A stretch of 64,000 bases of DNA from Alphaproteobacteria bacterium (GCA_040217575.1 JAVJPW010000008.1:139787-203786), one strand, 5' to 3'. Positions 12,009-29,661 are shown, numbered from the stretch's first letter. A program made the numbers and translations. The notes: generated by a model from the sequence alone, not told the origin.

Positions 12009-12590
12009 CTACTGGTTTGCGGCAGGGTTATCAGATGCGGTGCCCGGTTCGCGCCGCAGGGCAAGCAGCAACTGTTCGCCAAGACCGGGTCGGTCGTCAC
12101 CGGCCTCCCGCCGTTTGTCGTCCGACCGGCGATAGACATAAATACCCAGAACCGACAGACCGACCGTCCATATCGTGCCCAGGGAGGCGATCGCCGAAAT
12201 GACGGTGCCGGCGCTTTCCGGGTCGGCCACCACCGCATAGGCAATGGCGCCCATCTGCGCGGCCCAGGTCAACGCCATGATATAGCCGAATGTCGGCCGC
12301 ATGCGCCGGACATAGGCATCTTCGCTCTTTGCTTCGGCACGGATGGTCCGGTTTACCTGTTCCAACCATGTCCGGTCCGTTCGGGATTCAAGTTCGGACA
12401 TGGCCTCTACATGGCGATTCATTTCCATCAGATCGTCGCCGCTCAACCGACCGGATTCAATTTCCGCATCCAGTTGGGAAAGCGCATCGCCGGCGGCCTG
12501 TGCGACGGAGTTTTCGGATCGGGACAACGCGCCTCCGATAGCGCGGGCCAACAGGGGAATACCAACCTGGGCCAAGAGGGCAGGAAGCAT
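12009..12590 (-). CDS. 3TM-type holin (GTA_holin_3TM/DUF3154-like)
   Basis: Amphipathic N-terminus, AEAKSEDAYVRRMRPTFGY motif followed by hydrophobic helices, basic C-terminal YRRSDDK; last gene of phage cluster. Confidence 0.7.
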   Translation of the reverse strand: MLPALLAQVGIPLLARAIGGALSRSENSVAQAAGDALSQLDAEIESGRLSGDDLMEMNRHVEAMSELESRTDRTWLEQVNRTIRAEAKSEDAYVRRMRPTFGYIMALTWAAQMGAIAYAVVADPESAGTVISAIASLGTIWTVGLSVLGIYVYRRSDDKRREAGDDRPGLGEQLLLALRREPGTASDNPAANQ

Positions 12591-12647
12591 GGTCTTATTC
12601 TCCTAATCGTCGAGATGGGCCGAAGGCACGCAAGACGCGTGTGGGGG

Positions 12648-12956
12648 TCAGCGGCCCGGGTCGGCACTCTGTGCCCGGCGGTCCAATTTGGATTCGATGC
12701 GCAAAAGATGATCGGTCAATCGGTGTTCAAGGTCCTTGAGCTGGGCGGTCGACGCATAGCTCTTGGCCACTTCCAGTTTGTAGGCGCCCAGGGCCTCCCG
12801 TGCGCGCGCGACCGCTGTTTCGATCCTTTGGCGATGCTGATCCAATGCAACATCCTGATCGCGCCGGGTTCGCCACAACAGCCACCAGAGGCTGGTTATC
12901 AGCGGAACTTCACCGACCGCAATCCACCAAAGCAGGTCTTGAGACGCCTCTGGCAT
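12648..12956 (-). CDS. Phage-associated membrane-anchored coiled-coil protein
   Basis: N-terminal hydrophobic segment (LLWWIAVGEVPLITSLWWLLW), then coiled coil ending LLRIESKLD; between terminase and holin. Confidence 0.7.
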   Translation of the reverse strand: MPEASQDLLWWIAVGEVPLITSLWWLLWRTRRDQDVALDQHRQRIETAVARAREALGAYKLEVAKSYASTAQLKDLEHRLTDHLLRIESKLDRRAQSADPGR

Positions 12957-12992
12957 CGGAAGCTTCCTTTCCTATGGATTTAAAATTTGTGG

Positions 12993-14474
12993 TCAGACAG
13001 AGAACTCGCTGGGTGCAAGGACGGTATGGTCATGCCCGCGCCAGTTTTTCCTGTTTTCGACCGGGCCGTGCCGCGGAAGGCGGACAGGCTCCATCAGCAA
13101 GCACCCGGCGACGGCATCGAGGCCATCATCGCGGGCAGCGGTTCCATCGGGTCGCCATTCCCGCATCTCTGCCGGAAAAGCCGTATCCCAAACCGATGTG
13201 TGACATAGGATCTGCGACGCCGCGAGACTGGCATCGAACGCTTCCAGTATTCTGGTTTCCTTCGACTTTGACGAATGATGTTCGCGGACTGCGCAGGCTA
13301 CGCCGCAGGCGGCCATTTCCGACCGAAGCAACCCCGGCAGAAAGCGGCCAATGCCATTCGTTTCAATCGTGACGCTGGGCAGGAAGTTTCGGCGGGCAAA
13401 CCGCACGACAGCGCGGCACTGCTGTCGGGCCTCGTCCATCGCAAGACCCGGGTCCGTTTCCAGATATAGGACACGATGAAGCCGATAAAGCCCGTCATCA
13501 CCGGTAAAGACACAGGCAACCACGGAAGCATCGCCGGCCCCCTTTGCCCCATATGCGGGGTCCCACCAGGCGGATGCGGACCGCATTCGTATATCATCCA
13601 GCATCAGGATCGCCTCGCCATTGCGTTCCAACAGTTCGAGCCGGGCGTCGTAGAGACGCATTCGACCGGGATCCAGCCGAATATCACCGGACGCCACCGG
13701 CTTCAGCATCATCTGACTTTGGAATTTCGCATCCCCATGACGCCGACGGATGCTTTCCACAGCTTCTCTATCGTATCGTTCCGGCCAGGACGACGACCCG
13801 TCCGCCTTCAGGATCGGCATTTCAAAGCGGAGAAAACCCGCCAGAAACGCCTGAGTTTCGCCCAGTTCCGGCTGCGCCCTTTCCGCATAGATGGTATGGT
13901 AAGTGTGGGGTGTCCCCACATAAATCTGCGTGCCGCCGGGCACCAGAATGTAGTCCGCTTCGGCCAGACGTTCCCTCAGATCCGACCGCTTCGGTGCGGT
14001 GTCGCACGTGTTCGGCACCTCCACATCGTCGAAGACAATGACGTCCGCTCGGCTGCCGGTGAGGTTGGCGCTGATACCGCGCGCCATCATCGACGGGTCG
14101 CGCAGTTCCAGATCTCGATCGATGGTAAACCTGTCGGCGGCCCATTGATCCGACCGTTCCGGCTTCAGGCCATGGGTCAGTGGATGTCGTTCCAGCACAC
14201 GCTTGACGTTTCGAACCATACGCGTGGCCAGGTCCTGTTCCGCTGCCAGAACAAGTATCCGCAAGTTGCGGTTCCGACCCAGCAGCCACGCACAGAAAAG
14301 CCCCACAAGGGTCGACTTTCCGGCGGCCCGAAACGCCATCAGAAGAAGACGGGTATCGCCACCGGACCAACGCGCGTTCAACCATCGGCAAATTCGACGA
14401 TGCGCCAGCGGCGTTTCAACGCCTTGATGCCGGTTCCAGATCCAGACGAATTCAAGAAATGTGCATTTCTCCAT
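12993..14474 (-). CDS. Terminase large subunit, T7 gp19-like
   Basis: Walker A MAFRAAGKS, LTGSRADVIVFDDVEVP (compare T7 gp19 LTGSRADIIIADDVEIP), RNase-H-like nuclease WDPA...GDASV, ETNG, DDGLDA. Confidence 0.92.
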   Translation of the reverse strand: MEKCTFLEFVWIWNRHQGVETPLAHRRICRWLNARWSGGDTRLLLMAFRAAGKSTLVGLFCAWLLGRNRNLRILVLAAEQDLATRMVRNVKRVLERHPLTHGLKPERSDQWAADRFTIDRDLELRDPSMMARGISANLTGSRADVIVFDDVEVPNTCDTAPKRSDLRERLAEADYILVPGGTQIYVGTPHTYHTIYAERAQPELGETQAFLAGFLRFEMPILKADGSSSWPERYDREAVESIRRRHGDAKFQSQMMLKPVASGDIRLDPGRMRLYDARLELLERNGEAILMLDDIRMRSASAWWDPAYGAKGAGDASVVACVFTGDDGLYRLHRVLYLETDPGLAMDEARQQCRAVVRFARRNFLPSVTIETNGIGRFLPGLLRSEMAACGVACAVREHHSSKSKETRILEAFDASLAASQILCHTSVWDTAFPAEMREWRPDGTAARDDGLDAVAGCLLMEPVRLPRHGPVENRKNWRGHDHTVLAPSEFSV

Positions 14475-14477
14475 CTT

Positions 14478-14822
14478 CTATGGGTCCTCTTCGGCGGACG
14501 AAGCATCCGCAGCAAGAGCCAGGCGCGCCGCTGACAAATAGGCTTCGACCTCTCCCTTTTTCCCTTGGTCGGCGACTTGTTCCTTCTCCAGGGCGGTTTC
14601 CGCCAGCTTGATAATCTGTTCGATATGGGCGAGCGCCGCCTTCGCGCCGGTGTGAGTTGCAACAAAACTCTTCGGGTCGTCGGATTGCCCGGTTAGCGCA
14701 ATACGTTGATAGGCGGCAATTGCCGCATCCAGCATTTCCGGCAGCCGCCTGATGAGTTCCTTGCGCAGTTGCTGTGCCTGCGTCCGGCGACGTGCCGGGC
14801 CAGATTTCGGTCTTGGTGCCAT
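14478..14822 (-). CDS. Hypothetical helical protein, candidate small terminase
   Basis: 114 aa, basic N-terminus, ends 3 nt before large terminase start; function assigned by position only. Confidence 0.6.
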   Translation of the reverse strand: MAPRPKSGPARRRTQAQQLRKELIRRLPEMLDAAIAAYQRIALTGQSDDPKSFVATHTGAKAALAHIEQIIKLAETALEKEQVADQGKKGEVEAYLSAARLALAADASSAEEDP

Positions 14823-14860
14823 GTGGTTGTCTGTCCTGTTTTCGGCCTGCGCGGCGGCAG

Positions 14861-14890
14861 GAAAAACCCCGCCGGCAGGCCGGCGGGGTC
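14861..14890 (-). terminator. Intrinsic terminator between tail-fibre gene and terminase module
   Basis: ACCCCGCCGGC-ct-GCCGGCGGGGT hairpin followed by TTTT on the minus strand. Confidence 0.75.
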
Positions 14891-15063
14891 AGAAGAACGA
14901 TGTTAGGTTGGGGAGGCCGGGGCTAAAACAAGCGCTGCTCCCAATCCGGCCAATGTCCGTCGTATTCAGGGCCGTTTCGACAACTACCCCGAATATGTTT
15001 GGGTGTTTTCACGCAGGCCGCCGAATATCCGTGTACGGAATTGCAATTTCCCTGCCCTGCCGG

Positions 15064-17550
15064 TTACAGCGACAAGGGCTGGTCGGCTTGAAGCGCCCAT
15101 CGATGCAAACGAACTTCCTTTTCATTGGTGACCTCAAGTTTCACGACGCAATCTGTGCCCGTCCCCATGCTCTCAATATTGGCCGAACCGGAATAGATAC
15201 ATCGCGGGGAACCGGAAAATGAAGCCGGCGTCAGGGTCACCGCCGTCCAGGTCGCACCGCCATCACGGCTTACCGAAGCGGAAAAGTCGGTATTTTCTTC
15301 CGCGTCACCGACCTTCTCAAGGTCAATGATTGCACGAAGCTCGGTCGGGTCGGCGGATGCGGTGACGGGATTGCTGACTAGGGTCATATCCAATCCGATG
15401 GCGTGATCCTGCTCTATCCAGAAGCACCAGTCCGAACCGGGGTCGTTTGTTCCGGCCGTACGCATTGCGCCATCCGGATATCCGCCGGCATCATCATACT
15501 TGACCCGGAACGTCGTTTCCGGATCAGCCACCAACCAGTATTTCGTCGCAGGCGTCGGCGTGAACGGAATGTCAAAGGTGAAAAGACAGGTGGCGGCCGC
15601 ACTGTTCATGTCTCTGCTGATGTCTACCGTACAGGCCGCGAGGGCCCCCGCGGCAATGTCCGGTGCATCACCATTGTCGCCGAAGATGGCGAAGACGACT
15701 TCATTTGATGTTCCGAGCCCGGTCCCGTCGTAAAGTGCAAGCCCGCCGCCGATAATTCTGTTTCCGGTAGACACTTCGAAGGATTGTGCATAGTCACCCG
15801 CCGAGGAAGAACCGACAATCTGTGTGTAATGACCGGATGTCCAATCTTCGTTGAAAAAGACGTCCCCGCTCGTGACAGGAAACACACCGCATTTGACCGA
15901 GGACAGATACACATACGATCCGCCGGCCCCACTCTCCGCGCTGATCCCAATTCGCGTTTCACCGTCGCTGCCAGTCGAATCGGTCTCGTAATCCTGTTCG
16001 GACTGATCGACGATCTTTTCACCATCGAGCCAGACCTTGATGTCAGAAATGCAATTGCTGCTGTCCAATCGCTGCCAGATGGTCAGGACATACCAGACAT
16101 CGTCAACAAAGGTCCCGGCATCACTCAGGAAATGGTATGTGTTTACGCCCCCTCCACGGTTCTTGACCAGGCGTCCGTTGCCGTCGATCGACAGCAAGGA
16201 CCGCCGCCCCGAATCGTGTGTCGTGTATATCTGCAATGCCGGATAGACTGCGGTGCCACCATCGGCAAACGCTCCCAGCGCCGCAATGTCGGAGAACCGT
16301 AATTCCATCGAGACCAAACTCTCCGAGCCCCAATGGCCTATATCCTTGTAGATATGAGCATAGCTGTTGGCTTGCGGGCTGGTGGAAACCAGGGAAATGC
16401 ACGATTTCCCACCAACAGATCCTGCGGAGGCATCAACGTCACCGGTGTTGTTTTCGCTGATAGTCCAGCCATTGAGAGCCCCGCTACCGTCGAATGCCGT
16501 ATCGTCCACCCCGGCGTCACACGCAACAATCGCGGCGCTTCTGTTGGTGATATAGCCCGGAATAGACTTATGGGTGACGTTGGACGAGTTAGCGTTGTCC
16601 AATCCGGTTGTGTCGGAAAAGACATCGAGATACGTATTAATCAAAGCTTTCGGCCCAAGCCCGTCGATGCGTGCCAATTCCCATGCCGTTACAAGGGCAA
16701 GGTCAGCGGTATTGGCCAGCGCGGTCACATTTGTACTGATCGTGTCCAGCAGATTTCCGTCCGCATCCGGATCCCGGCCATTTATGGTCTCCACATTCGT
16801 AATTGACTGGGCTCCCATGTCGAGCGGCCCGGTCATTGAGGCCGATCCGTCCCGGGCGAGATATATATCGGCCGTCGCAATCGCCTCCGTCCATCCAGAC
16901 CCGGTATAGGCCATCAGGCTTTCAAGGCCTGTGTCGAAATAGAAGTCCCCCGCCTGTAACGGTGAACCGTCAATCCGGGTGATGGGTTGGTTCTCCAAAT
17001 TACCGGTTCCCAGATAGATCAGTGCGAAACTGGATATGTTGCCGCTGATCTTTGCGTTCACCGTTTCCGGTCTCCCGTCCAGGTCAAAACTCAGCAACAT
17101 GCCGGCGCGATCTTTGACAGTCGGCAAGACCAGTTCAATATCCGTGTCGTATGGCTGGCGATGTATTGAATCGCCGACCAACGCCTCTGTTTGCTGCAAC
17201 AGCAACGCCGTCCGATCCAGTTCATCGTTCAGGACCGCAGCCCGAAGGTCCGCTCCCGGCGTGAAATCTGTGGTACGCTGAAAGGGCATATCGCGCCACA
17301 TCGTCACACGGGCGCCATCAGCGGGTATGACGGACAGTTGAACAGATCCTCCGGTAGGTTCTCCTACACCGGAAACGGTGTAGTCGGTGCTGTCCAAAAC
17401 TGTAGCATTCACGGCAACCTTGAGGTCACTCGCAGCAAGAACCGGAAAGTCGAAATCAAATGTATCTGTGGCGTTCTCACCCGCGCCTTGCAGAACCTGA
17501 ACGCGCGGGCGGATGTCATTGATCAGAATGTCGGGCATGGCTAACTCCAA
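15064..17550 (-). CDS. Tail fibre / receptor-binding protein
   Basis: N-terminus resembles T7 gp17-type adaptor (TDTFDFDFPVLAASDLKV...DYTVSG...RTTDF...LNDELDR); Gly/Ser/Thr/Asp beta-rich body; C-terminal SVSRDGGATWTAVTL motif; follows tail tube genes. Confidence 0.82.
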   Translation of the reverse strand: MELAMPDILINDIRPRVQVLQGAGENATDTFDFDFPVLAASDLKVAVNATVLDSTDYTVSGVGEPTGGSVQLSVIPADGARVTMWRDMPFQRTTDFTPGADLRAAVLNDELDRTALLLQQTEALVGDSIHRQPYDTDIELVLPTVKDRAGMLLSFDLDGRPETVNAKISGNISSFALIYLGTGNLENQPITRIDGSPLQAGDFYFDTGLESLMAYTGSGWTEAIATADIYLARDGSASMTGPLDMGAQSITNVETINGRDPDADGNLLDTISTNVTALANTADLALVTAWELARIDGLGPKALINTYLDVFSDTTGLDNANSSNVTHKSIPGYITNRSAAIVACDAGVDDTAFDGSGALNGWTISENNTGDVDASAGSVGGKSCISLVSTSPQANSYAHIYKDIGHWGSESLVSMELRFSDIAALGAFADGGTAVYPALQIYTTHDSGRRSLLSIDGNGRLVKNRGGGVNTYHFLSDAGTFVDDVWYVLTIWQRLDSSNCISDIKVWLDGEKIVDQSEQDYETDSTGSDGETRIGISAESGAGGSYVYLSSVKCGVFPVTSGDVFFNEDWTSGHYTQIVGSSSAGDYAQSFEVSTGNRIIGGGLALYDGTGLGTSNEVVFAIFGDNGDAPDIAAGALAACTVDISRDMNSAAATCLFTFDIPFTPTPATKYWLVADPETTFRVKYDDAGGYPDGAMRTAGTNDPGSDWCFWIEQDHAIGLDMTLVSNPVTASADPTELRAIIDLEKVGDAEENTDFSASVSRDGGATWTAVTLTPASFSGSPRCIYSGSANIESMGTGTDCVVKLEVTNEKEVRLHRWALQADQPLSL

Positions 17551-17587
17551 AGACGGATTGTTATGGTTTCAGGGTTCTTGGGCGTCG

Positions 17588-18043
17588 TCAGGGACCCGGC
17601 TCTTCTTGCGGTTCGGACTCTTCGATCACAGACCCAAGCGTGACCAGCGACTGTCCGATTTCCAGGATTGAGCCGAATGGATCGTCATCCGAAAGCAAAC
17701 TTCCGGCCTGTGGCGATGCGTTGAACAAGGAACGGCCTTCGGCCAGTTGTTCGTCGAACTTCTTGTTGAGCCCCCGAAGAACAGCGGCACCGGAACCATC
17801 CCCAACCCCGGCCCCCGAGGCACCGAGCCGCGCCCGTGCAGACGCTTCCGCCGAACGCCGTTCGCGCTCCAGTCTGCGTTCCTCGATCTGTTGCCGCAAA
17901 GTAGCGTGGCGCTGCTGCTGGGCGGCGTGGGCTGCCTGTTTCCTTCGCTGGCGGTTAGATTGCTGTATGCCGTGAAGTGTCGAAGCGACCGCCATGATCG
18001 CCTGTATCTCTGCCATCGTGATTCTCCATTGCGTGTCATTCAC
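17588..18043 (-). CDS. Small virion protein, possible internal/ejection protein (T7 gp14-like)
   Basis: Gln/Arg/Ala coiled coil then ARARLGASGAGVGDGSGAAVL; position after tail tube B matches internal virion genes. Confidence 0.55.
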   Translation of the reverse strand: MNDTQWRITMAEIQAIMAVASTLHGIQQSNRQRRKQAAHAAQQQRHATLRQQIEERRLERERRSAEASARARLGASGAGVGDGSGAAVLRGLNKKFDEQLAEGRSLFNASPQAGSLLSDDDPFGSILEIGQSLVTLGSVIEESEPQEEPGP

Positions 18044-19950
18044 CCGTTGACTGAAATTTCTGCCAGAACCGACAGGATGGTTGAGGAAAGCGGGTCATGC
18101 TGTTCAATCCGCCAAAGCGGTTTTGGGTCCCCACGCGTCCATCCAAGAGCCCGAACCGTCTTGTCGCCCGTAATCGGCGTAATTGGAGAATCCAGCGCTT
18201 CCGGACCAAGAGTCTTGAAAGGCAGTGGCCGGAGCCCCTGACCAACGTCGACGCGCAGGGCCTGTGTTTGGAAAAGGCGAAATGTTGCTTTCACAAGGCG
18301 AACTGCAGCACCCTGGGCAACACCGCCACCTGGGATATGAAAGACAGGTAGAGGTTCTACGACATGTGTGAACCGAAGACCTGCCTGCAGGTTTGTCGCA
18401 GGCTGCGAAAGTATGATTTTTCCCGCGATTACTTCCACCGGGTCACGGACAACACCATCCGCGACAATATCGACGGTACGCCCGTCCAAATGACCGAAAC
18501 CATTCCACTCGTTCTTCGGCAACTCTTCGAATCCGACGCTTGCCGTTATGCCCGCGTCGGTCTGCACATCCGAATCCAGTTTTTCAATTCGGAAAGACGC
18601 GTCGCGCTCTACCAGGCAATAGATTTCCTCACCCACCGCCGCCACCGACCGGACAGCGCCATCCGTTTCGAAAAGCGTCCAGGCATTGACGCTTTCGCGC
18701 CGGAAGACGGTAACCGACGCCATCGTTCCGTCCGAATTGACGACATAAAGAATTCGATCCGTCTTGTGAAAATCCTGATCAACCGGCGATCGCAACATAT
18801 CTTCTGAAAGCACGGCAAGGTCGGTCGACTGGTACGCCTGTTCCACATCTGCAAAAAGAAACTCCCGCAGTTCCGAACCGCTGCGGGAAACGAAAAGCGT
18901 TGCGCCATCCACGTCGTTGGGGGGAATGGTCCGATCCACCGGAGAACCAATTCGGGTTTGGCGATTCAACTGAATGTTTGACGGTGTAAGCGGATCGCCG
19001 GAGACCATCCATTCCGCGCCAGATGTAAAAACCTGCAAATGACGCCCCGAAAAGACAGCGCGTACAGCGTTGACCTGATCGGACAGGATCGCGAACTCGA
19101 TGGCTTCGTCGTCTTCCGCATCACCTAGGTCGAAATTGAAAAGATCCGCGGACCTGGACAGCCACAAACGGTTGGTGAGATCCCGGCTTCCGCCAATCAC
19201 GAGCCTGTCCTGATGAAATGTGCATGAGACGGGGTAACCACGCACCGGCGAAAAAGAGGCTTCCTCCCAGTCCTTCTCTGCGCCGGTAGCGGCCAGTGTT
19301 TCCAACACGTCAGCGGAAGCATTCCTTGCGTCGGCGACAGCAGTGATTTCAATTTCCCGGTCGGCAATGCGAAAGCGAACACCAACATGGCCCTGGACGA
19401 AAACGTCCCCCGAAGCCGTCACCGAAATTGAGCCGCTTGTCCCGCTGGGCGTCAGCGTCAAATCGTCCGACGCAAACTTAAAATGCGGCTGGTTGATCCG
19501 ACCGGAATTTTCGTGGAACACCCAATCCGCCAGAGTCCAGACACTGGCGCTCGAACGCGTAAGCCGCTTGGGCGGAACGTCTGGATGAACCAGAAGAAGC
19601 GTGTCCGCGCTTTGCGTCCAATTGACCTGTCTTAGTTGTACCTCCGTCCAGGGCGCATCGATCGTCACAACCTCGGAATCGTCGGCATAAACGGCGATTT
19701 TCAAATTGCTGAGCACCAGCAGATAGACCTGTTCCGTGTTGAACTCGAAGGCGATCAGCCGTCCGCCGCCCAACGCATTCGCAATATGCCGCAAACCAGC
19801 CCGACGCCGAATTCCGCCGGTCGGAATGACGCGCACATTCCGCAGTTTCGCCGCTCCGTTTTCATAGGCGCTCAGATCACCGCGCCCGATCAGTTCGGGC
19901 GACAATTCCCCTGCCGTGAAATTTGTCTTTATCGTCTTGACCCGAGCCAT
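18040..19950 (-). CDS. Tail tubular protein B / nozzle (T7 gp12-like)
   Basis: KTNFTAGELSP...GGIRRRAG N-terminus, WTQSADTL, FHQDRLVIGG, beta-propeller-like repeats. Confidence 0.85.
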   Translation of the reverse strand: MARVKTIKTNFTAGELSPELIGRGDLSAYENGAAKLRNVRVIPTGGIRRRAGLRHIANALGGGRLIAFEFNTEQVYLLVLSNLKIAVYADDSEVVTIDAPWTEVQLRQVNWTQSADTLLLVHPDVPPKRLTRSSASVWTLADWVFHENSGRINQPHFKFASDDLTLTPSGTSGSISVTASGDVFVQGHVGVRFRIADREIEITAVADARNASADVLETLAATGAEKDWEEASFSPVRGYPVSCTFHQDRLVIGGSRDLTNRLWLSRSADLFNFDLGDAEDDEAIEFAILSDQVNAVRAVFSGRHLQVFTSGAEWMVSGDPLTPSNIQLNRQTRIGSPVDRTIPPNDVDGATLFVSRSGSELREFLFADVEQAYQSTDLAVLSEDMLRSPVDQDFHKTDRILYVVNSDGTMASVTVFRRESVNAWTLFETDGAVRSVAAVGEEIYCLVERDASFRIEKLDSDVQTDAGITASVGFEELPKNEWNGFGHLDGRTVDIVADGVVRDPVEVIAGKIILSQPATNLQAGLRFTHVVEPLPVFHIPGGGVAQGAAVRLVKATFRLFQTQALRVDVGQGLRPLPFKTLGPEALDSPITPITGDKTVRALGWTRGDPKPLWRIEQHDPLSSTILSVLAEISVNG

Positions 19951-20519
19951 CAGCCCCTTACTCCCACAAGAGTGTAATCATCGAAGCGCGGCGGCATGTC
20001 TTGCTGGGCATCAATCAGGCGAGCCTGCCGGAACTGGTTTTCGGCCAGTTTGTGAAGAACCTCCGATCGTGAGACGCTTTCCGTAATAGGAAGACAGAAT
20101 TCGGCTGCCAGCCGGCCGATCAAAGCCTGGTCGAAGAATGGGGGAAACGACGATTCATTGGGGCGAAAAATATAAGTCAGGGTGACAGCGCCCGCATTCG
20201 TATGAAGACGACGTTCGACCAGGCGGTAATCCAGCCCGCGGCCGTACCCGGCCTCACCGGCGGAGAGGGCGCGAAGAAAGTCTGACGGCAACTGATAAGC
20301 GTAATCATAGTCGGCGACTGGCACCCCGACCAAACGCGACAAGTCACGCTGGGCGGTCGCAAAACTCCAGGGGTGGGCCGACAGAAGCGCATCGCGCGTC
20401 GATGGATAAAGTGTCGCCGCAACAACACTTTCCGCCGTCCCCTCATCGAACCCGGCAATGGGTGACGCGCCGATCTTGATCAATGCACGGCTGGCAAGCT
20501 GAATGCTGTTCAGGGCCAT
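19950..20519 (-). CDS. Tail tubular protein A / gatekeeper (T7 gp11-like)
   Basis: ASRALIKIGASPI...RDALLSAHPWSFA...YQLPSDFLR...F..ALIGRLA pattern; 1-bp overlap with tube B. Confidence 0.85.
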   Translation of the reverse strand: MALNSIQLASRALIKIGASPIAGFDEGTAESVVAATLYPSTRDALLSAHPWSFATAQRDLSRLVGVPVADYDYAYQLPSDFLRALSAGEAGYGRGLDYRLVERRLHTNAGAVTLTYIFRPNESSFPPFFDQALIGRLAAEFCLPITESVSRSEVLHKLAENQFRQARLIDAQQDMPPRFDDYTLVGVRG

Positions 20520-20532
20520 GAAACATCTCCGG

Positions 20533-20568
20533 AAAAAAGAAGACCGCCCGGTCGACGCCCGGGCGGTC
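20533..20568 (-). terminator. Intrinsic terminator after head genes (T7 Tphi-like position)
   Basis: GACCGCCCGG-N7-CCGGGCGGTC 10-bp stem followed by TTCTTTTTT on the minus strand. Confidence 0.78.
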
Positions 20569-20603
20569 CAGTTGGGACAATGATGAAATCTGACGTTCCC
20601 GGG

Positions 20604-20873
20604 TCAGTCCGTATCGCTGGACCCCACATCCGTCAGGTCGTCCACATCGACGGACGACCCATCATTGGCGGAAACATGCAAAATCCCGGATGTGAGCGTT
20701 CCGTCCGTATCCGTGTTGGCCAGGATCATGTCGCCGACGCGCAGCATATCCGCCGCGTCATTGAAATATCCTGCCGTATCGACATCGGTCGCGGCATCCT
20801 GTGTCGTGTAGTGCCACAAGGTGAAACCGTTCGCATAGGCGATGACGCTCAGGTCGCGTGAAGCATAGGCCAT
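20604..20873 (-). CDS. Small acidic head-associated protein (possible decoration protein)
   Basis: 89 aa, strong GAGGAGG RBS, immediately after capsid gene; FTLWHYTT...GYFNDAADMLRVGDMI. Confidence 0.7.
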   Translation of the reverse strand: MAYASRDLSVIAYANGFTLWHYTTQDAATDVDTAGYFNDAADMLRVGDMILANTDTDGTLTSGILHVSANDGSSVDVDDLTDVGSSDTD

Positions 20874-20893
20874 TGGTTAACCCTCCTCTTCGG

Positions 20894-21718
20894 TTAGGAT
20901 TCGAGGCAGGGAAGGCGCACGATGCCGGTCGCATCGATGACGCCGGCACCCTGGCTCATCATGTGATTGACGAAGTGGGCGGCCCGGTCGCCGTGCCACG
21001 AGATATCGGATGTGACATCTTTGCCGATGGCATGACCGACGGCCGTCTTGTGGTACCAGTACCCGTTCCGCACACCGCCAGACAGAACAAGCCCGGAATG
21101 CGGCATCCAAAGCGTACCAAGCCAGTTCTTCGCCTGGGTCCCCTTCCAAGGCAGGTCATCGTTGCCGACGTAGTCCGCGTTCGCGAATTCCTCGATGTCC
21201 AGCAGGTCGCTCCACTGCTTCCAGCCGATGATCGCAAACCGCTGACCGTCGTCCGGAACGTCGGCGGCGCCTAGCATCTCAAAGGCCTCCAGGACCTTTG
21301 CCTTGGTCAGGCCGTCGGACCCATCCTGGGCATTCTGGCCGGACGCCACACCTTCCATTGATTCGATGATCAGATCATCGGTCTTCCGGCCGAGTGCATA
21401 AGCGCCGGCATTGGCAACGACCGATCGTTCGTCATGCCGGATTTTCATTTCGTCCAAGGCATCAACCCAGTCGCCGGCATAGTAATCCTGCAACGAGACT
21501 TCGACCGGCGTATGGTCGACATTCATGACCGGGACTTTGCCGTGGCGGGCCTTGGTCGATGCGGTGCCCTTTCCGACTTTCTGGAAGGTCGTGGAAGAGC
21601 CTTTGATATTGTCCTTCGTCCGCACGGTATTGCGAAGCTTGGATCCCATCCGCTGATAGGCGTTATGGACCTCGTTCTCAAACTGGCGGCTGAAGGATTG
21701 ATCCACCGTTGTGGACAT
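20894..21718 (-). CDS. Major capsid protein (podovirus-type)
   Basis: QFENEVHNAYQRMGSKLRNTV...RHG...DYYAGDWVD.LDE.K...AYALGRKTDDLII resembles HTVC010P/BPP-1-type capsids; AAGGA RBS. Confidence 0.85.
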   Translation of the reverse strand: MSTTVDQSFSRQFENEVHNAYQRMGSKLRNTVRTKDNIKGSSTTFQKVGKGTASTKARHGKVPVMNVDHTPVEVSLQDYYAGDWVDALDEMKIRHDERSVVANAGAYALGRKTDDLIIESMEGVASGQNAQDGSDGLTKAKVLEAFEMLGAADVPDDGQRFAIIGWKQWSDLLDIEEFANADYVGNDDLPWKGTQAKNWLGTLWMPHSGLVLSGGVRNGYWYHKTAVGHAIGKDVTSDISWHGDRAAHFVNHMMSQGAGVIDATGIVRLPCLES

Positions 21719-22047
21719 GGGGTCATCCTTTCATAGATGCGGGCAGAAGCACCGGCGATCTCTCACCACCGGCACCACCGCCCATGTTTCATTTTCCATT
21801 GGATTTTGCCGCGGTTCTCGCGCCTGAAACGACGCGGCCGCGAAGGGCGGGACGACCGTTCCGGACAAGTCCGGCAATCGGGGCCCCATATGTCAGAAGG
21901 GAGTATACGGATTGTCGCACCGAAAGCGCTGGCGCGGTCCGACCGACAAACATGTTTTCCTGATCAATCCGGAATGCCCCTAATCCGTTGAGAGGGGTGG
22001 TTCATCCGGGACTGTTCAGGCACATTTGTGGCCCGTTCCTGAAAAGG

Positions 22048-22075
22048 AACATACATATGTTTCTTTTAATGTCAA
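22048..22075 (-). promoter_or_regulatory. Sigma70-type promoter TTGACA-N16-TATGTT facing the capsid gene, overlapped by a palindrome
   Basis: Minus strand reads TTGACA TTAAAAGAAACATATG TATGTT; palindrome AGGAACATA-CA-TATGTTTCT at 22045-22064; second inverted repeat TCGTATTT-N9-AAATACGA at 22093-22117. Confidence 0.6.
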
Positions 22076-22178
22076 TATATTTTGTGATTTTGTCGTATTT
22101 AAATAGAACAAATACGATATATAAAAAGTTCTGATGCTGATACCGCCGCTGTAGGAAGCGGTCTTGCCGTAAAAACCG

Positions 22179-22568
22179 GTGCTGCGTACTGTTGCCGCCG
22201 ACATGATCTACCATCTTGCAAAAAAGTCGGCCTGGAACGAGGCGCAGGAGACCGGCGTCTATCGCGGGGCCGAGGCCGACCGCGCCGACGGATTTCTTCA
22301 TCTTTCCACTGACAAGCAAATCAGGGAAAGCGCCAGGAAACACCGTACCGGCGAATCCGATCTGGTTCTTCTTTTTGTTGACGAGACACAATTGCCGGAA
22401 ACTCTTGTCTGGGAAGCGTCGCGCGGCGGGCAATTGTTTCCCCATCTATATGAGTCGCTTCCGATTGCCGCCGTGACAGGAACGGCCGACCTGCCTTTGG
22501 ACCGGTCAGGGGACCACGTGTTCCCGGAAAACCTTCCGGCATCCTTCCCCCCGAGTACAGACGGATGA
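22179..22568 (+). CDS. DUF952 family protein
   Basis: IYHLAKKSAW...DGFLHLST...GGQLFPHLY; overlaps pyrD start as is usual in alphaproteobacteria; start may be ATG 22203. Confidence 0.85.
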   Translation: MLRTVAADMIYHLAKKSAWNEAQETGVYRGAEADRADGFLHLSTDKQIRESARKHRTGESDLVLLFVDETQLPETLVWEASRGGQLFPHLYESLPIAAVTGTADLPLDRSGDHVFPENLPASFPPSTDG

Positions 22569-27570: not shown

Positions 27571-29661
27571 CTATTGCGCTTCCCGGCGCCACGCAAAGGC
27601 AAGCCCCGCGGCCACCAGGGCAAGAAGAAACCACCCCGGCAGCAATGCGGCGGAATCCAATCCCACCACCGTATAGTCGCCGTTTCTGCGTAAACCGACC
27701 CAATCGCTACCGGATGTCGGTCGATCCGTAGAGACGCGGCGCACGGAGATGGGGTCGCTTGCGTCAAATCGATGCAGCCCGCCGCCGCTGTCCGCCACCG
27801 GCCCGGCCAGAAGCCGGTCCGTCGATGTCAGGTCAGACACCTCGCGCGCGTTCAGCGACCCCGCGGCCACGCGCACGGTTCTGTCCCCCAAGCCAACCTC
27901 GTACAAACCGTTCTGGGTCAGCGGCAGGGACCCGGAAAACACGCCGTCGGTCAGCGGTTCCAGTTGCGCCTGCGCCACGGTGCCGTCCGGTTGTTCGACG
28001 GTCGCGGTCAGATTGTCCCCCACATCGTCCAGCGTCCGCAGGCGGATTTCCAGCCGGTCGTTCCGGACTTCGGCGCTCAGGTCCTCTTCTTCCAGCTCCG
28101 GTTCCTGCATCAGCCAGTGCGACAGCCGCCGCATCAGTTCGGCATAGGGGCCGCCGCCTTCATAACCACGCGCCCAAAGCCAGATATGGTCGCTGCTGAT
28201 CTGTGCGACGCGCCCCTCGCCGACACGGTCCAGCGACAGCAACGGCTGATCGTTCAGGCCGGTCATCACAACATCCCCCGACCGGCTTGCCACATCGACC
28301 TGGCGCAACCACGCCCCCCAGCGCGGTTCGTCGTCGGGCCCGGCGAAACTGCGCGGCCCGCCCGGCAGGGATGCGGTGACCGGATGCCGCCGTCCGCGTT
28401 CGGTCAGCATCGGGCGAAACACACCTTCGCTGATGCTGTCCAGCGGTTCCAGCGGAAGAACCTCCCCAAGCGGGCTGCGATACAAGCTGAAAGGCCCGGC
28501 AAAGCCCGGACCGGCCGCGTCCAGAAGGGCGCCGCCGTCATAGATATAGTCCACCACATTCGCCAGATAGACGGATGGAAGAACCCCGCGCCGCCGGTAA
28601 TTGTCAAAAACGATCAGGTCGAAATCGTTCAGTTTCACTTCGAACAACTCGCGGGTCGGAAATGCGATCAGCGACAGTTCGTTGATGGGGGTTCCATCCT
28701 GTTTTTCCGGCGGCCGCAGGATCGTGAAGTGGACCAGATCCACCGACGGGTCGGACTTCAGCAGATTTCGCCAGGTTCGTTCGCCGGGGTGCGGTTCCCC
28801 GCTGATCAACAGAACCCGAAGCCGGTCCCGAACGCCGTTGATCGCCGCCAGCGCCGTGTTGTTGCGCGTCGACAGTTCCTCGGGCAGGTCCGGTACGCTG
28901 AGTTCGACCACCGTCGCCCCTCGCCGTTGCAGGGCGATTTCAATTGTCACGTCTTCGTTGAACGGAATGCGGTTCAGCCGCTGCGCTTCCCCGTCCACGC
29001 TCAGGCTCGCGCGAATACTATCGCCGGCCGTGGCGGTCGGATCATCGACACGGATCACCATCTCGAACGGTTCGCCGACGATGGCAAAGCTTGGATATTC
29101 GACAATCCGAATACGCCGGTCCGGGATGCCGGGATCACCGATCAAGACGGCATGAAGGGGTCCGTCCGGAAGCCCGCCCAACTGGTCCGCGTCATGAATC
29201 TGGCCGTCCGTGACAAGAATGCTGCCGGCGTAGCGCCGGTCCGGCACGTCGGCCAGTGCGGTGCGAACCGCTTCCAGCAGGGTCGTGCCCCGGTCACTTT
29301 CAGCAATGCTGTCGTGGCGCAAGATGACTTCGCGCACATCCAGTCCCGGTTCGTGACGGGACAAGGACTGGCGCAGGACCTCGGCGGCGGCGCGCGTCTG
29401 TTCAATCCGTCCGGCGATTTCCTGCGATGGTGTTTCATCGACAATCAGAAGCGCGACATCGGCATTCGGTTCGCGGCGTTCCTGATGCAATGTCGGGTTG
29501 GCAAGCCCGGCCAGGATTACCGCCGCCACGCCTGTGCGAACCCATGCGGCAGGCACACCTCGCCAGAACAGGAACGCCGATGCCAGCGCCCACACGCCCG
29601 CGATGACCAGAATGGTCCATAAAGGAATGAACGGGGCGAAGTCGATCGAATAGCCGGTCAT
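27571..29661 (-). CDS. Membrane protein with GATase1-like domain (MoxR operon associated)
   Basis: N- and C-terminal TMs; RVLLISGEPHPGERTWRNLLKSDPSVDLVHFTILRPP motif. Confidence 0.8.
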   Translation of the reverse strand: MTGYSIDFAPFIPLWTILVIAGVWALASAFLFWRGVPAAWVRTGVAAVILAGLANPTLHQERREPNADVALLIVDETPSQEIAGRIEQTRAAAEVLRQSLSRHEPGLDVREVILRHDSIAESDRGTTLLEAVRTALADVPDRRYAGSILVTDGQIHDADQLGGLPDGPLHAVLIGDPGIPDRRIRIVEYPSFAIVGEPFEMVIRVDDPTATAGDSIRASLSVDGEAQRLNRIPFNEDVTIEIALQRRGATVVELSVPDLPEELSTRNNTALAAINGVRDRLRVLLISGEPHPGERTWRNLLKSDPSVDLVHFTILRPPEKQDGTPINELSLIAFPTRELFEVKLNDFDLIVFDNYRRRGVLPSVYLANVVDYIYDGGALLDAAGPGFAGPFSLYRSPLGEVLPLEPLDSISEGVFRPMLTERGRRHPVTASLPGGPRSFAGPDDEPRWGAWLRQVDVASRSGDVVMTGLNDQPLLSLDRVGEGRVAQISSDHIWLWARGYEGGGPYAELMRRLSHWLMQEPELEEEDLSAEVRNDRLEIRLRTLDDVGDNLTATVEQPDGTVAQAQLEPLTDGVFSGSLPLTQNGLYEVGLGDRTVRVAAGSLNAREVSDLTSTDRLLAGPVADSGGGLHRFDASDPISVRRVSTDRPTSGSDWVGLRRNGDYTVVGLDSAALLPGWFLLALVAAGLAFAWRREAQ

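Follow-up and report, generated by a model that had tools for sequence, protein, structure and literature searches.

A T7-like virion gene set split between two loci in Alphaproteobacteria: a candidate short-tailed gene transfer agent

The gene transfer agents (GTAs) known so far go back to a handful of independent domestications, and in Alphaproteobacteria the ones that have been studied are of the Rhodobacter capsulatus (RcGTA) type and the Bartonella type. Is there, besides these, a kind with a short tail? The DNA that raises the question is a stretch of 64,000 nucleotides from an alphaproteobacterial genome (GCA_040217575.1, JAVJPW010000008.1:139787-203786), called 'the window' below. At 12009-21718 on its minus strand are ten open reading frames (ORFs) with zero internal stops that run, in order of transcription, from a capsid gene through those for an 89-amino-acid (aa) protein, a tail adaptor, a tail nozzle, a 151-aa protein, a fibre, a 114-aa protein, a terminase and a 102-aa protein to a holin-like gene, which is the order of the T7 late genes from gene 10 onwards. 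An initial annotation had taken these ten genes, intact as they indeed are, for a domesticated podovirus-like cluster and a possible GTA. The cluster is the capsid-to-lysis half of a larger element, and that element is a strong candidate for a GTA of a new, short-tailed sort.

A two-locus GTA-like element, FpGTA, has been described in Faecalibacterium prausnitzii, its podovirus-like morphology being inferred and called the first such (PMC12946183), and genes of RcGTA type have been reported from endosymbionts (George et al. 2022). In a full-text literature search no account of a podoviral or T7-like GTA from Alphaproteobacteria turned up.

Two loci of one element

A T7-type particle needs both a portal and a scaffold, and the window is without either. 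In the genome there is a single portal gene (G000:C5:628342-630042; PF12236, E 3.7e-132), on another contig, and it belongs to a second locus, locus A, with genes for a repressor, u138, u137, the portal, a Bbp19-like protein and the scaffold, the window cluster being locus B. On the 3′ side of the portal gene come the Bbp19-like gene, a scaffold gene of T7 type (PF05396) and then the gene for a small protein, s111; on its 5′ side are two or three conserved function-unknown genes, u138, u137 and u123, and, divergent from them, the gene for a 208-aa CI/LexA-like repressor (G000:C5:626343-626966; L097:6343-6966). The flanks of locus A are a class-IV aminotransferase gene, at4, beyond the repressor, and asnB and a methyltransferase gene beyond the scaffold. 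In total there are 18 element genes in about 15 kb, each single-copy in the genome and all intact, and the earlier claim that there is no repressor, correct for the window, does not hold for the element.

Some of the small genes of locus A have features of their own. The 111-aa s111 (G000:C5:631129-631464; L097:11129-11464) repeats the C-terminus of the scaffold, 52% over 54 aa, in the C-terminal part of PF05396, and is found as a separate gene in the window's family and at one further locus, L028. The satellite protein CpmB redirects assembly to smaller heads, and s111 could be a candidate for an internal scaffold that redirects size. Among the residues of u137 (L097:7598-8008; 137 aa) His36, Cys37 and Cys101 are invariant, and its predicted model (predicted local distance difference test, pLDDT, 83) matches uncharacterised phage proteins at template modelling (TM) scores of 0.65-0.75 and, weakly, papain-like proteases. 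The predicted model of u138 matches nothing, and profile searches of the PDB with u138 and u137 were without a match.

How is the element arranged in relatives? A capsid scan with one genome per species gave 470 stretches, of which the best 80 were retained with 10-kb flanks. Among these 80 loci the layout is contiguous in 46, rearranged in 8, without a portal in 20 (none, that is, in the 6 kb or more before the capsid gene) and unclassifiable in 6, where the flank is too short. The contiguous order is repressor, then u138, u137, portal, Bbp19, scaffold, capsid, the 89-aa protein (p89), adaptor, nozzle, a variable part with a small internal protein and the fibre, the 114-aa protein (p114), terminase, the 102-aa protein (p102), in some loci an endolysin, and holin, and most other genera have one 13-20 kb cluster flanked by host genes. 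Of the T7-architecture virion module the portal, scaffold, adaptor, nozzle, fibre N-terminal domain and large terminase are represented (PF12236, PF05396, phrog_394, phrog_376, phrog_1640 and NF033889), and in the 46 contiguous loci they are in T7 order. One contiguous locus, L037, is in direct contact with host genes, lysK and a PAS-GGDEF-EAL gene on its left and pyrD on its right; another, L026, has an EamA transporter gene on its left, and an endolysin gene (PF07486), the holin gene and the fibre gene after that for terminase. Between the scaffold and capsid genes of the latter, on the opposite strand, is a host-type ODP metallo-beta-lactamase-fold gene (L026:7820-9700).

Neither in nor next to any locus examined, the window, locus A, L037 and L026 included, is there an integrase, excisionase, replication or polymerase gene, as had been said of the window at the outset. 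The element is in this respect like a GTA, being without replication, integration or excision genes of its own, and both its loci, as well as L037 and L026, abut host genes.

Several lines of evidence bear on how the two halves came to be apart. The gene at4 is at the repressor end in 11 of the 12 loci of family f1 that were examined, in Magnetovibrio, in Haematospirillum and in further lineages, and at three distant loci, L037, L042 and L119, pyrD is 3′ of the holin gene; in the window pyrD adjoins the capsid end, which an inversion of the capsid-to-holin segment would explain. Within the window's genus complete genomes have the capsid gene 1.2-1.5 Mb from that for the portal; the distances in two further genera of the family are 244 kb and 68 kb, and the family's remaining members have the two genes on different contigs. 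In a neighbouring family they are adjacent. Separation throughout the one family with adjacency in its neighbour indicates that scaffold and capsid genes were parted early in the history of the window's family, and both halves are intact across at least 5 of its genera. A second capsid set, of 43-51% identity (loci L110-L114; genomes G037, G024, G110 and G256), which may represent prophages or another inherited form, is arranged differently: some 11 kb separate its capsid gene from the Bbp19-like gene.

Selection, descent and distribution

Within the genus the ratio of nonsynonymous to synonymous divergence (dN/dS) is 0.07 for the capsid gene, 0.06 for the adaptor, 0.10 for each of nozzle, terminase, portal and the 102-aa gene, 0.12 for the holin-like gene and 0.17 for the scaffold, and for the host flanks it is 0.17 (pyrD), 0.18 (asnB) and 0.09 (at4). 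The median dS, 1.1-2.0, is similar to that of the host flanks, and the dN of the capsid gene is 0.09 versus 0.27 for the adjoining pyrD. Trees of portal and at4 from 18 genomes have the same groups and the same deep splits. Of the 167 sequences in the capsid tree, the 162 bacterial ones are one clade (support 96); among the outsiders Pelagibacter phage Hodr, with 46% capsid identity, is nearest, and HTVC010P, Baldr and Vibrio phages are further out. No complete phage is among the closest relatives.

The vertical inheritance and purifying selection that characterize a GTA, or viriform, are thus both found. The initial annotation had called for a comparison of presence, synteny, selection and gene trees across relatives, and each came out as host domestication predicts: no congeneric genome lacks the capsid gene, which many genera have, pyrD is kept beside it within the genus and at4 beside the portal half across families, dN/dS for capsid, tail and terminase genes is 0.06-0.12, no higher than in the housekeeping genes nearby, and the portal tree is congruent with that of flanking at4. 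Domestication by the host is very probable. The best explanation is that an ancestor of Rhodospirillales-type Alphaproteobacteria captured a set of genes with T7 architecture, of the kind seen in HTVC010P, Hodr and LME-1, between the class-IV aminotransferase gene and pyrD, and that inheritance has since been chromosomal.

The capsid gene is single-copy in 8 of 8 congeneric genomes (84-88% identity in 7 of them) and occurs in 69 of 401 genomes drawn evenly from Alphaproteobacteria, these being from 55 of 294 genera. Across orders the capsid is 65-88% identical. Among the carriers are genomes of only 0.9-1.4 Mb with 31-41% G+C; in the five examined gene order is scrambled, and in two of these the terminase gene, terL, aligns in pieces or partly. 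By their record titles, cultured-strain carriers include Pacificispira spongiicola KN72, Marivibrio halodurans, Curvivirga aplysinae, Terasakiella pusilla DSM 6293, Caenispirillum salinarum AK4 and Roseospirillum parvum, and also members of Telmatospirillum, Magnetospirillum, Haematospirillum, Craurococcus and Crenalkalicoccus, while the Micavibrio carriers are metagenome-assembled genomes only. Does the distribution overlap with that of RcGTA? The RcGTA marker PF13547 is in 33 of the 401 genomes, its positive control, Caulobacter vibrioides, being found, and in 0 of the 69 capsid carriers; under independence an overlap of about 6 genomes would be expected by raw arithmetic uncorrected for phylogeny. 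In this sample the carriers of the capsid and those of PF13547 have only one family in common.

Some database labels appear at odds with this picture. A 5084 bp sequence from human faeces filed as 'Bacteriophage sp.' (MT838907.1; L002) has portal, Bbp19-like, scaffold, capsid, p89 and adaptor genes of 36-58% identity, and as the capsid tree places it among the bacterial sequences, its likely source is the chromosome of some gut alphaproteobacterium, of whose copy it would be a fragment. Others (L018, CP051228.1, and L157, L173, L177 and L186) are labelled Mesoflavibacter, Bacteroidota, Actinomycetota, Limiplasma and Stygiobacter. Their capsids are nested in Rhodospirillales clades, CP051228.1 counting as of the window's own genus, and they are probably mislabelled or contaminated bins.

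Proposed working, and other explanations

What might the element do for its host? The explanation favoured here, that the window holds half of a domesticated podovirus that makes a GTA-like particle, is given a probability of about 0.6 as a whole, and for its central part, that the genes specify a GTA-like particle of podoviral origin, the odds seem somewhat better than even. Relief of the CI-like repressor would let locus A supply portal and scaffold, and in the window the putative promoter (22075-22048) would drive the capsid gene and the 89-aa gene, a leaky terminator (20569-20541) leaving fewer transcripts for adaptor, nozzle, fibre, terminase and lysis genes. The capsid would then assemble, probably with T=7, the T7-type terminase would pack DNA into it, and the holin-like protein would release short-tailed particles whose fibres would attach to neighbouring cells. 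Entry of the DNA would be via the recipient's own uptake machinery, on which RcGTA DNA entry also depends.

What would such particles contain? The element is about 15 kb at two distant places and related phages package 34-39 kb, so a filled head of about 30-40 kb, unable to hold both loci, would be without the full gene set and its packaged DNA would be mostly that of the host. That portal, scaffold and an active-looking terminase are all kept argues for filled heads as what selection maintains, and the variable fibre tip for particles that bind cells. Entry is another matter. Between nozzle and fibre the window has its 151-aa gene only, where Hodr has genes for proteins of 159, 783 and 1247 aa (T7 gp14, gp15 and gp16 positions); neither the 783-aa nor the 1247-aa protein has a homologue in the approximately 200 loci or in the genome, so that the large core or ejection proteins, of T7 gp15 and gp16 type, are absent, and their loss suggests that entry depends on the recipient. 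More tentatively, and with the balance tipping slightly the other way, it can be proposed that Alphaproteobacteria have a second, independently domesticated and working GTA lineage, of T7-like podoviral descent and of the same age as the Rhodospirillales-grade orders, in lineages without RcGTA, tiny-genome symbionts among them; that its particles, lacking ejection proteins, would bring host DNA no further than the periplasm and rely on uptake by the recipient; and that in the window's family s111 might redirect assembly to smaller heads in the manner of CpmB.

A number of findings weigh against a GTA-like, host-serving element and should be set out together. Above the level of the genus its presence is patchy (the capsid is in 13 of 25 related genera) and there are a few damaged copies, in genomes G386 and G054 for example. 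With dS saturated (>1) the dN/dS values are rough, the 'host' tree used for comparison is from a gene, at4, that is linked to the element, and the capacity of the capsid is taken from a homologue. The genome has no homologue of the endolysin, the Hydrolase_2 enzyme of relatives. Then there is the matter of joint control of the two loci: within the genus no 10-mer, with up to one mismatch allowed, is common to the promoter sets of both, and the repressor has lost both the LexA-type Ser and the Lys in the window's whole family, as it has in Micavibrio-type copies, Haematospirillum and a few other lineages.

Could a domesticated particle be kept for something other than gene transfer, as a killing or lysis device, as a source of extracellular DNA or as a defence against related phages, so that what is selected is production of the particle or the lysis that releases it? 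The evidence for domestication applies to that equally, the DNA-carrying ejection proteins are missing, the lysis genes are conserved, and an SOS-type autoprotease pair is present in 27-29 of 49 repressors, as in the repressors of pyocin-type particles. Even so it is unlikely, since portal, scaffold and a terminase with all its catalytic motifs are kept everywhere, which points to selection for DNA-filled heads, needless for pure killing or lysis, and since the variable fibre tip implies binding to changing cell surfaces, which fits delivery. That the element is still mobile, a temperate phage or a helper-dependent satellite repeatedly inserted at the same site, is far less probable again. It does have a phage-like switch, its CI-like repressor being divergent from the first operon, it has lysis genes, and its nearest non-bacterial relatives are real phages, Hodr and LME-1, of which LME-1 can be lysogenic. 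However, the examined loci have no integrase, excisionase, replication or polymerase gene, the window has no tRNA, no isolated phage is inside the bacterial capsid clade, and the element is single-copy, has its loci far apart throughout a whole family and co-diverges with a flanking host gene; for this genome mobility is largely refuted.

Two narrower possibilities were also rejected, a complete phage or prophage, as there is no integrase, attachment site or replication module and the genes are not contiguous, and a satellite like the phage-inducible chromosomal islands (PICIs), as integrase and replication genes are lacking and the element has tail genes of its own. Least credible is a decaying prophage remnant without function. 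This copy is without gp15/gp16-type genes and an endolysin, and about half of the related genera are without the element, both as would be expected of decay, but 18 of 18 genes are intact, dN/dS is 0.06-0.12 at saturated synonymous sites, catalytic motifs are kept, and the element, its capsid well conserved across orders, has survived in genomes of 0.9-1.4 Mb. Selection and conservation data thus refute a remnant.

If the GTA-like reading is right, there would be a second, old and short-tailed GTA lineage in about one-sixth of evenly sampled alphaproteobacterial genomes, complementary to RcGTA, and the estimated frequency with which phages have been domesticated for DNA exchange would need revision. 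The share of gene flow ascribed to such particles among marine, soil, magnetotactic, predatory and symbiotic Alphaproteobacteria would change, as would the number of T7-like regions in genomes and viromes that are recognised as misannotated 'prophages'. That the genes are retained in the service of the host and not for the element's own spread is argued most clearly, among what nature offers, by the split copy, and as cultured carriers exist the question is directly testable.

Genes and signals of the window, and known systems compared

The genes of the cluster, which with its signals is on the minus strand, were named with PHROG, Pfam and NCBIfam profiles. The major capsid protein (20894-21718; PF19821, E 1.9e-84; phrog_3437) has as its nearest solved relative 9EG4, the T=7 capsid, approximately 600 angstroms, of Legionella phage LME-1 (E 4.5e-28). 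The 89-aa protein encoded after it (20604-20873; phrog_18004, E 1.6e-19) has a mean column identity of 65% over 18 sequences, that of phage Hodr included, and profile searches of the PDB with it and with the 114-aa protein were without any match. Tail tubular protein A, the adaptor (19950-20519; phrog_394, E 6.9e-46), is followed by tail tubular protein B, the nozzle (18040-19950; phrog_376, E 6.5e-142), whose PDB matches are the tail nozzle 8CK1 (E 3e-53) and orf18 of 9EFK (E 8e-34), and then, at the position of T7 gp14, by the 151-aa protein (17588-18043), with a weak internal-virion-like match (phrog_418, E 4e-7). In the 828-aa tail fibre (15064-17550) the match to phrog_1640 (E 4.9e-21) covers residues 24-122, that to PF03906 falls under the Pfam cut-off, and the resemblance to T7 is confined to the N-terminal approximately 120 residues, the domain which in the T7 fibre is the anchor; only the N-terminal third aligns with relatives and the Hodr fibre, the C-terminal part being variable.

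At the position of T7 gp18 is the 114-aa basic protein (14478-14822), of the function-unknown family phrog_31793, a candidate small terminase by its position directly upstream of terL in many loci. The large terminase itself (12993-14474) is of T7 type (NF033889 termin_lrg_T7, 419 bits; phrog_38, E 9e-83), and of 52 near-full-length homologues from the retained loci none has a stop; Walker A (GKST), Walker B (DDVE) and the acidic nuclease residues show no less than 95% conservation among them. The 102-aa membrane protein (12648-12956; phrog_29007, E 2.2e-29) has a hydrophobic N-terminus and a coiled-coil-like remainder; its gene is kept after terL in most loci, a position that suggests an association with lysis. 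The last gene of the cluster is for the 193-aa holin-like protein (12009-12590; PF11351 GTA_holin_3TM, E 2.6e-13, 51 bits; phrog_3427 holin, E 2e-7), which is 66-75% identical within genus and family.

The description of the cluster as tightly coupled is not right for all of its genes, gaps of 241 bp between the fibre and 114-aa genes and of 84 bp between the 89-aa and adaptor genes being exceptions, and its G+C content is, as had been noted for the capsid gene, close to that of the host (cluster 57.9%, capsid gene 58.9%, genome 60.1%), the fibre gene being lowest at 55.8%. One flank has genes for pyruvate kinase, an IclR regulator, a flavoprotein, a class-IV aminotransferase and an AMP-binding acyl-CoA-synthetase-type enzyme, and the other has dihydroorotate dehydrogenase (pyrD), an EAL protein and a HAD hydrolase. 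Of the neighbours named by the initial annotation the synthetase and pyrD stand; the DUF952 label does not, as the ORF concerned (22002-22445), between the capsid promoter and pyrD, has no Pfam match, its conservation in the genus being 34-53%. Another ORF without a Pfam match, of 696 aa, is at 27571-29661 on the minus strand. There is, as stated earlier, no tRNA in the whole window, and no Rfam family anywhere in it, the leader included.

Upstream of the capsid gene is a sigma-70-like sequence, TTGACA-N16-TATGTT (22048-22075; 10 of 12 consensus matches), the putative promoter of the capsid-to-holin genes. Its -35 region, TTGAC(A/T)TGTTC, is kept in 6 of 7 aligned sequences of the genus, the TGTTC being displaced in the window, and the promoter region and the first 20 nucleotides of the leader are conserved in the genus. 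The untranslated leader (21719-22047) is long, about 330 nucleotides, has no conserved ORF and folds with a z-score of -2.8 versus shuffles; it starts with a genus-conserved block, GGAAC(G/A)GG(C/G)CACAA.TGTGCC, which contains the near-palindrome GGCACAA.TGTGCC. Genome-wide counts of operator patterns were uninformative. At the boundary between head and tail genes is a terminator-like hairpin of 11 pairs, 9 of them G-C, with a T run (20541-20569), and a hairpin with a T run is at the same position in 29 of 56 related loci, with differing stem sequences. T7 has a terminator after gene 10, and the window hairpin resembles that arrangement. As for the repressor, the LexA-type Ser and Lys (SGDSM ... 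AK) are those of the 27-29 homologues counted above, and with both lost SOS-type self-cleavage is unlikely in the window's family.

How, finally, does the element compare with what has been described? Pelagibacter phage EXVC031P Hodr and phages of the HTVC010P type have the same virion genes, in the same order from portal to fibre, their capsids being 46% (Hodr) and about 32% (HTVC010P type) identical to that of the element, and Hodr has the 89-aa gene too. They are, however, complete phages with genomes of about 34-39 kb, outside the bacterial clade, and Hodr differs also in the two large genes between nozzle and fibre (783 and 1247 aa) and in having its terminase gene upstream of that for the portal. 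Legionella phage LME-1 (9EG4 capsid, 9EFK portal-tail), a T=7 particle with T7-like tail architecture (PMC12407071), provides the nearest solved capsid and a related nozzle, but is an infectious phage with a full genome. FpGTA, which resembles the element in being encoded at two loci and in the podovirus-like morphology inferred by its authors, is from a Bacillota host, and in contrast to the candidate element of the window it has experimental packaging data. With the RcGTA type (Rhodogtaviriformidae; Rhodobacter capsulatus, Caulobacter, Dinoroseobacter) the element has in common head, tail, packaging and lysis genes that come from a phage, the lack of genes for replication or integration, vertical inheritance and purifying selection in Alphaproteobacteria, genes that are sometimes spread over several loci, and an incomplete apparatus for DNA entry. 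The ancestry is unrelated, being for RcGTA an HK97-type head and a siphovirus tail and here a T7-type portal, scaffold, adaptor, nozzle, fibre and terminase with a PF19821 capsid, and the marker of RcGTA g15, the GTA_TIM domain PF13547, is absent from the window's genome, all of which bears out the distinction from RcGTA originally drawn. Unlike RcGTA, the element has a CI-like repressor of its own.

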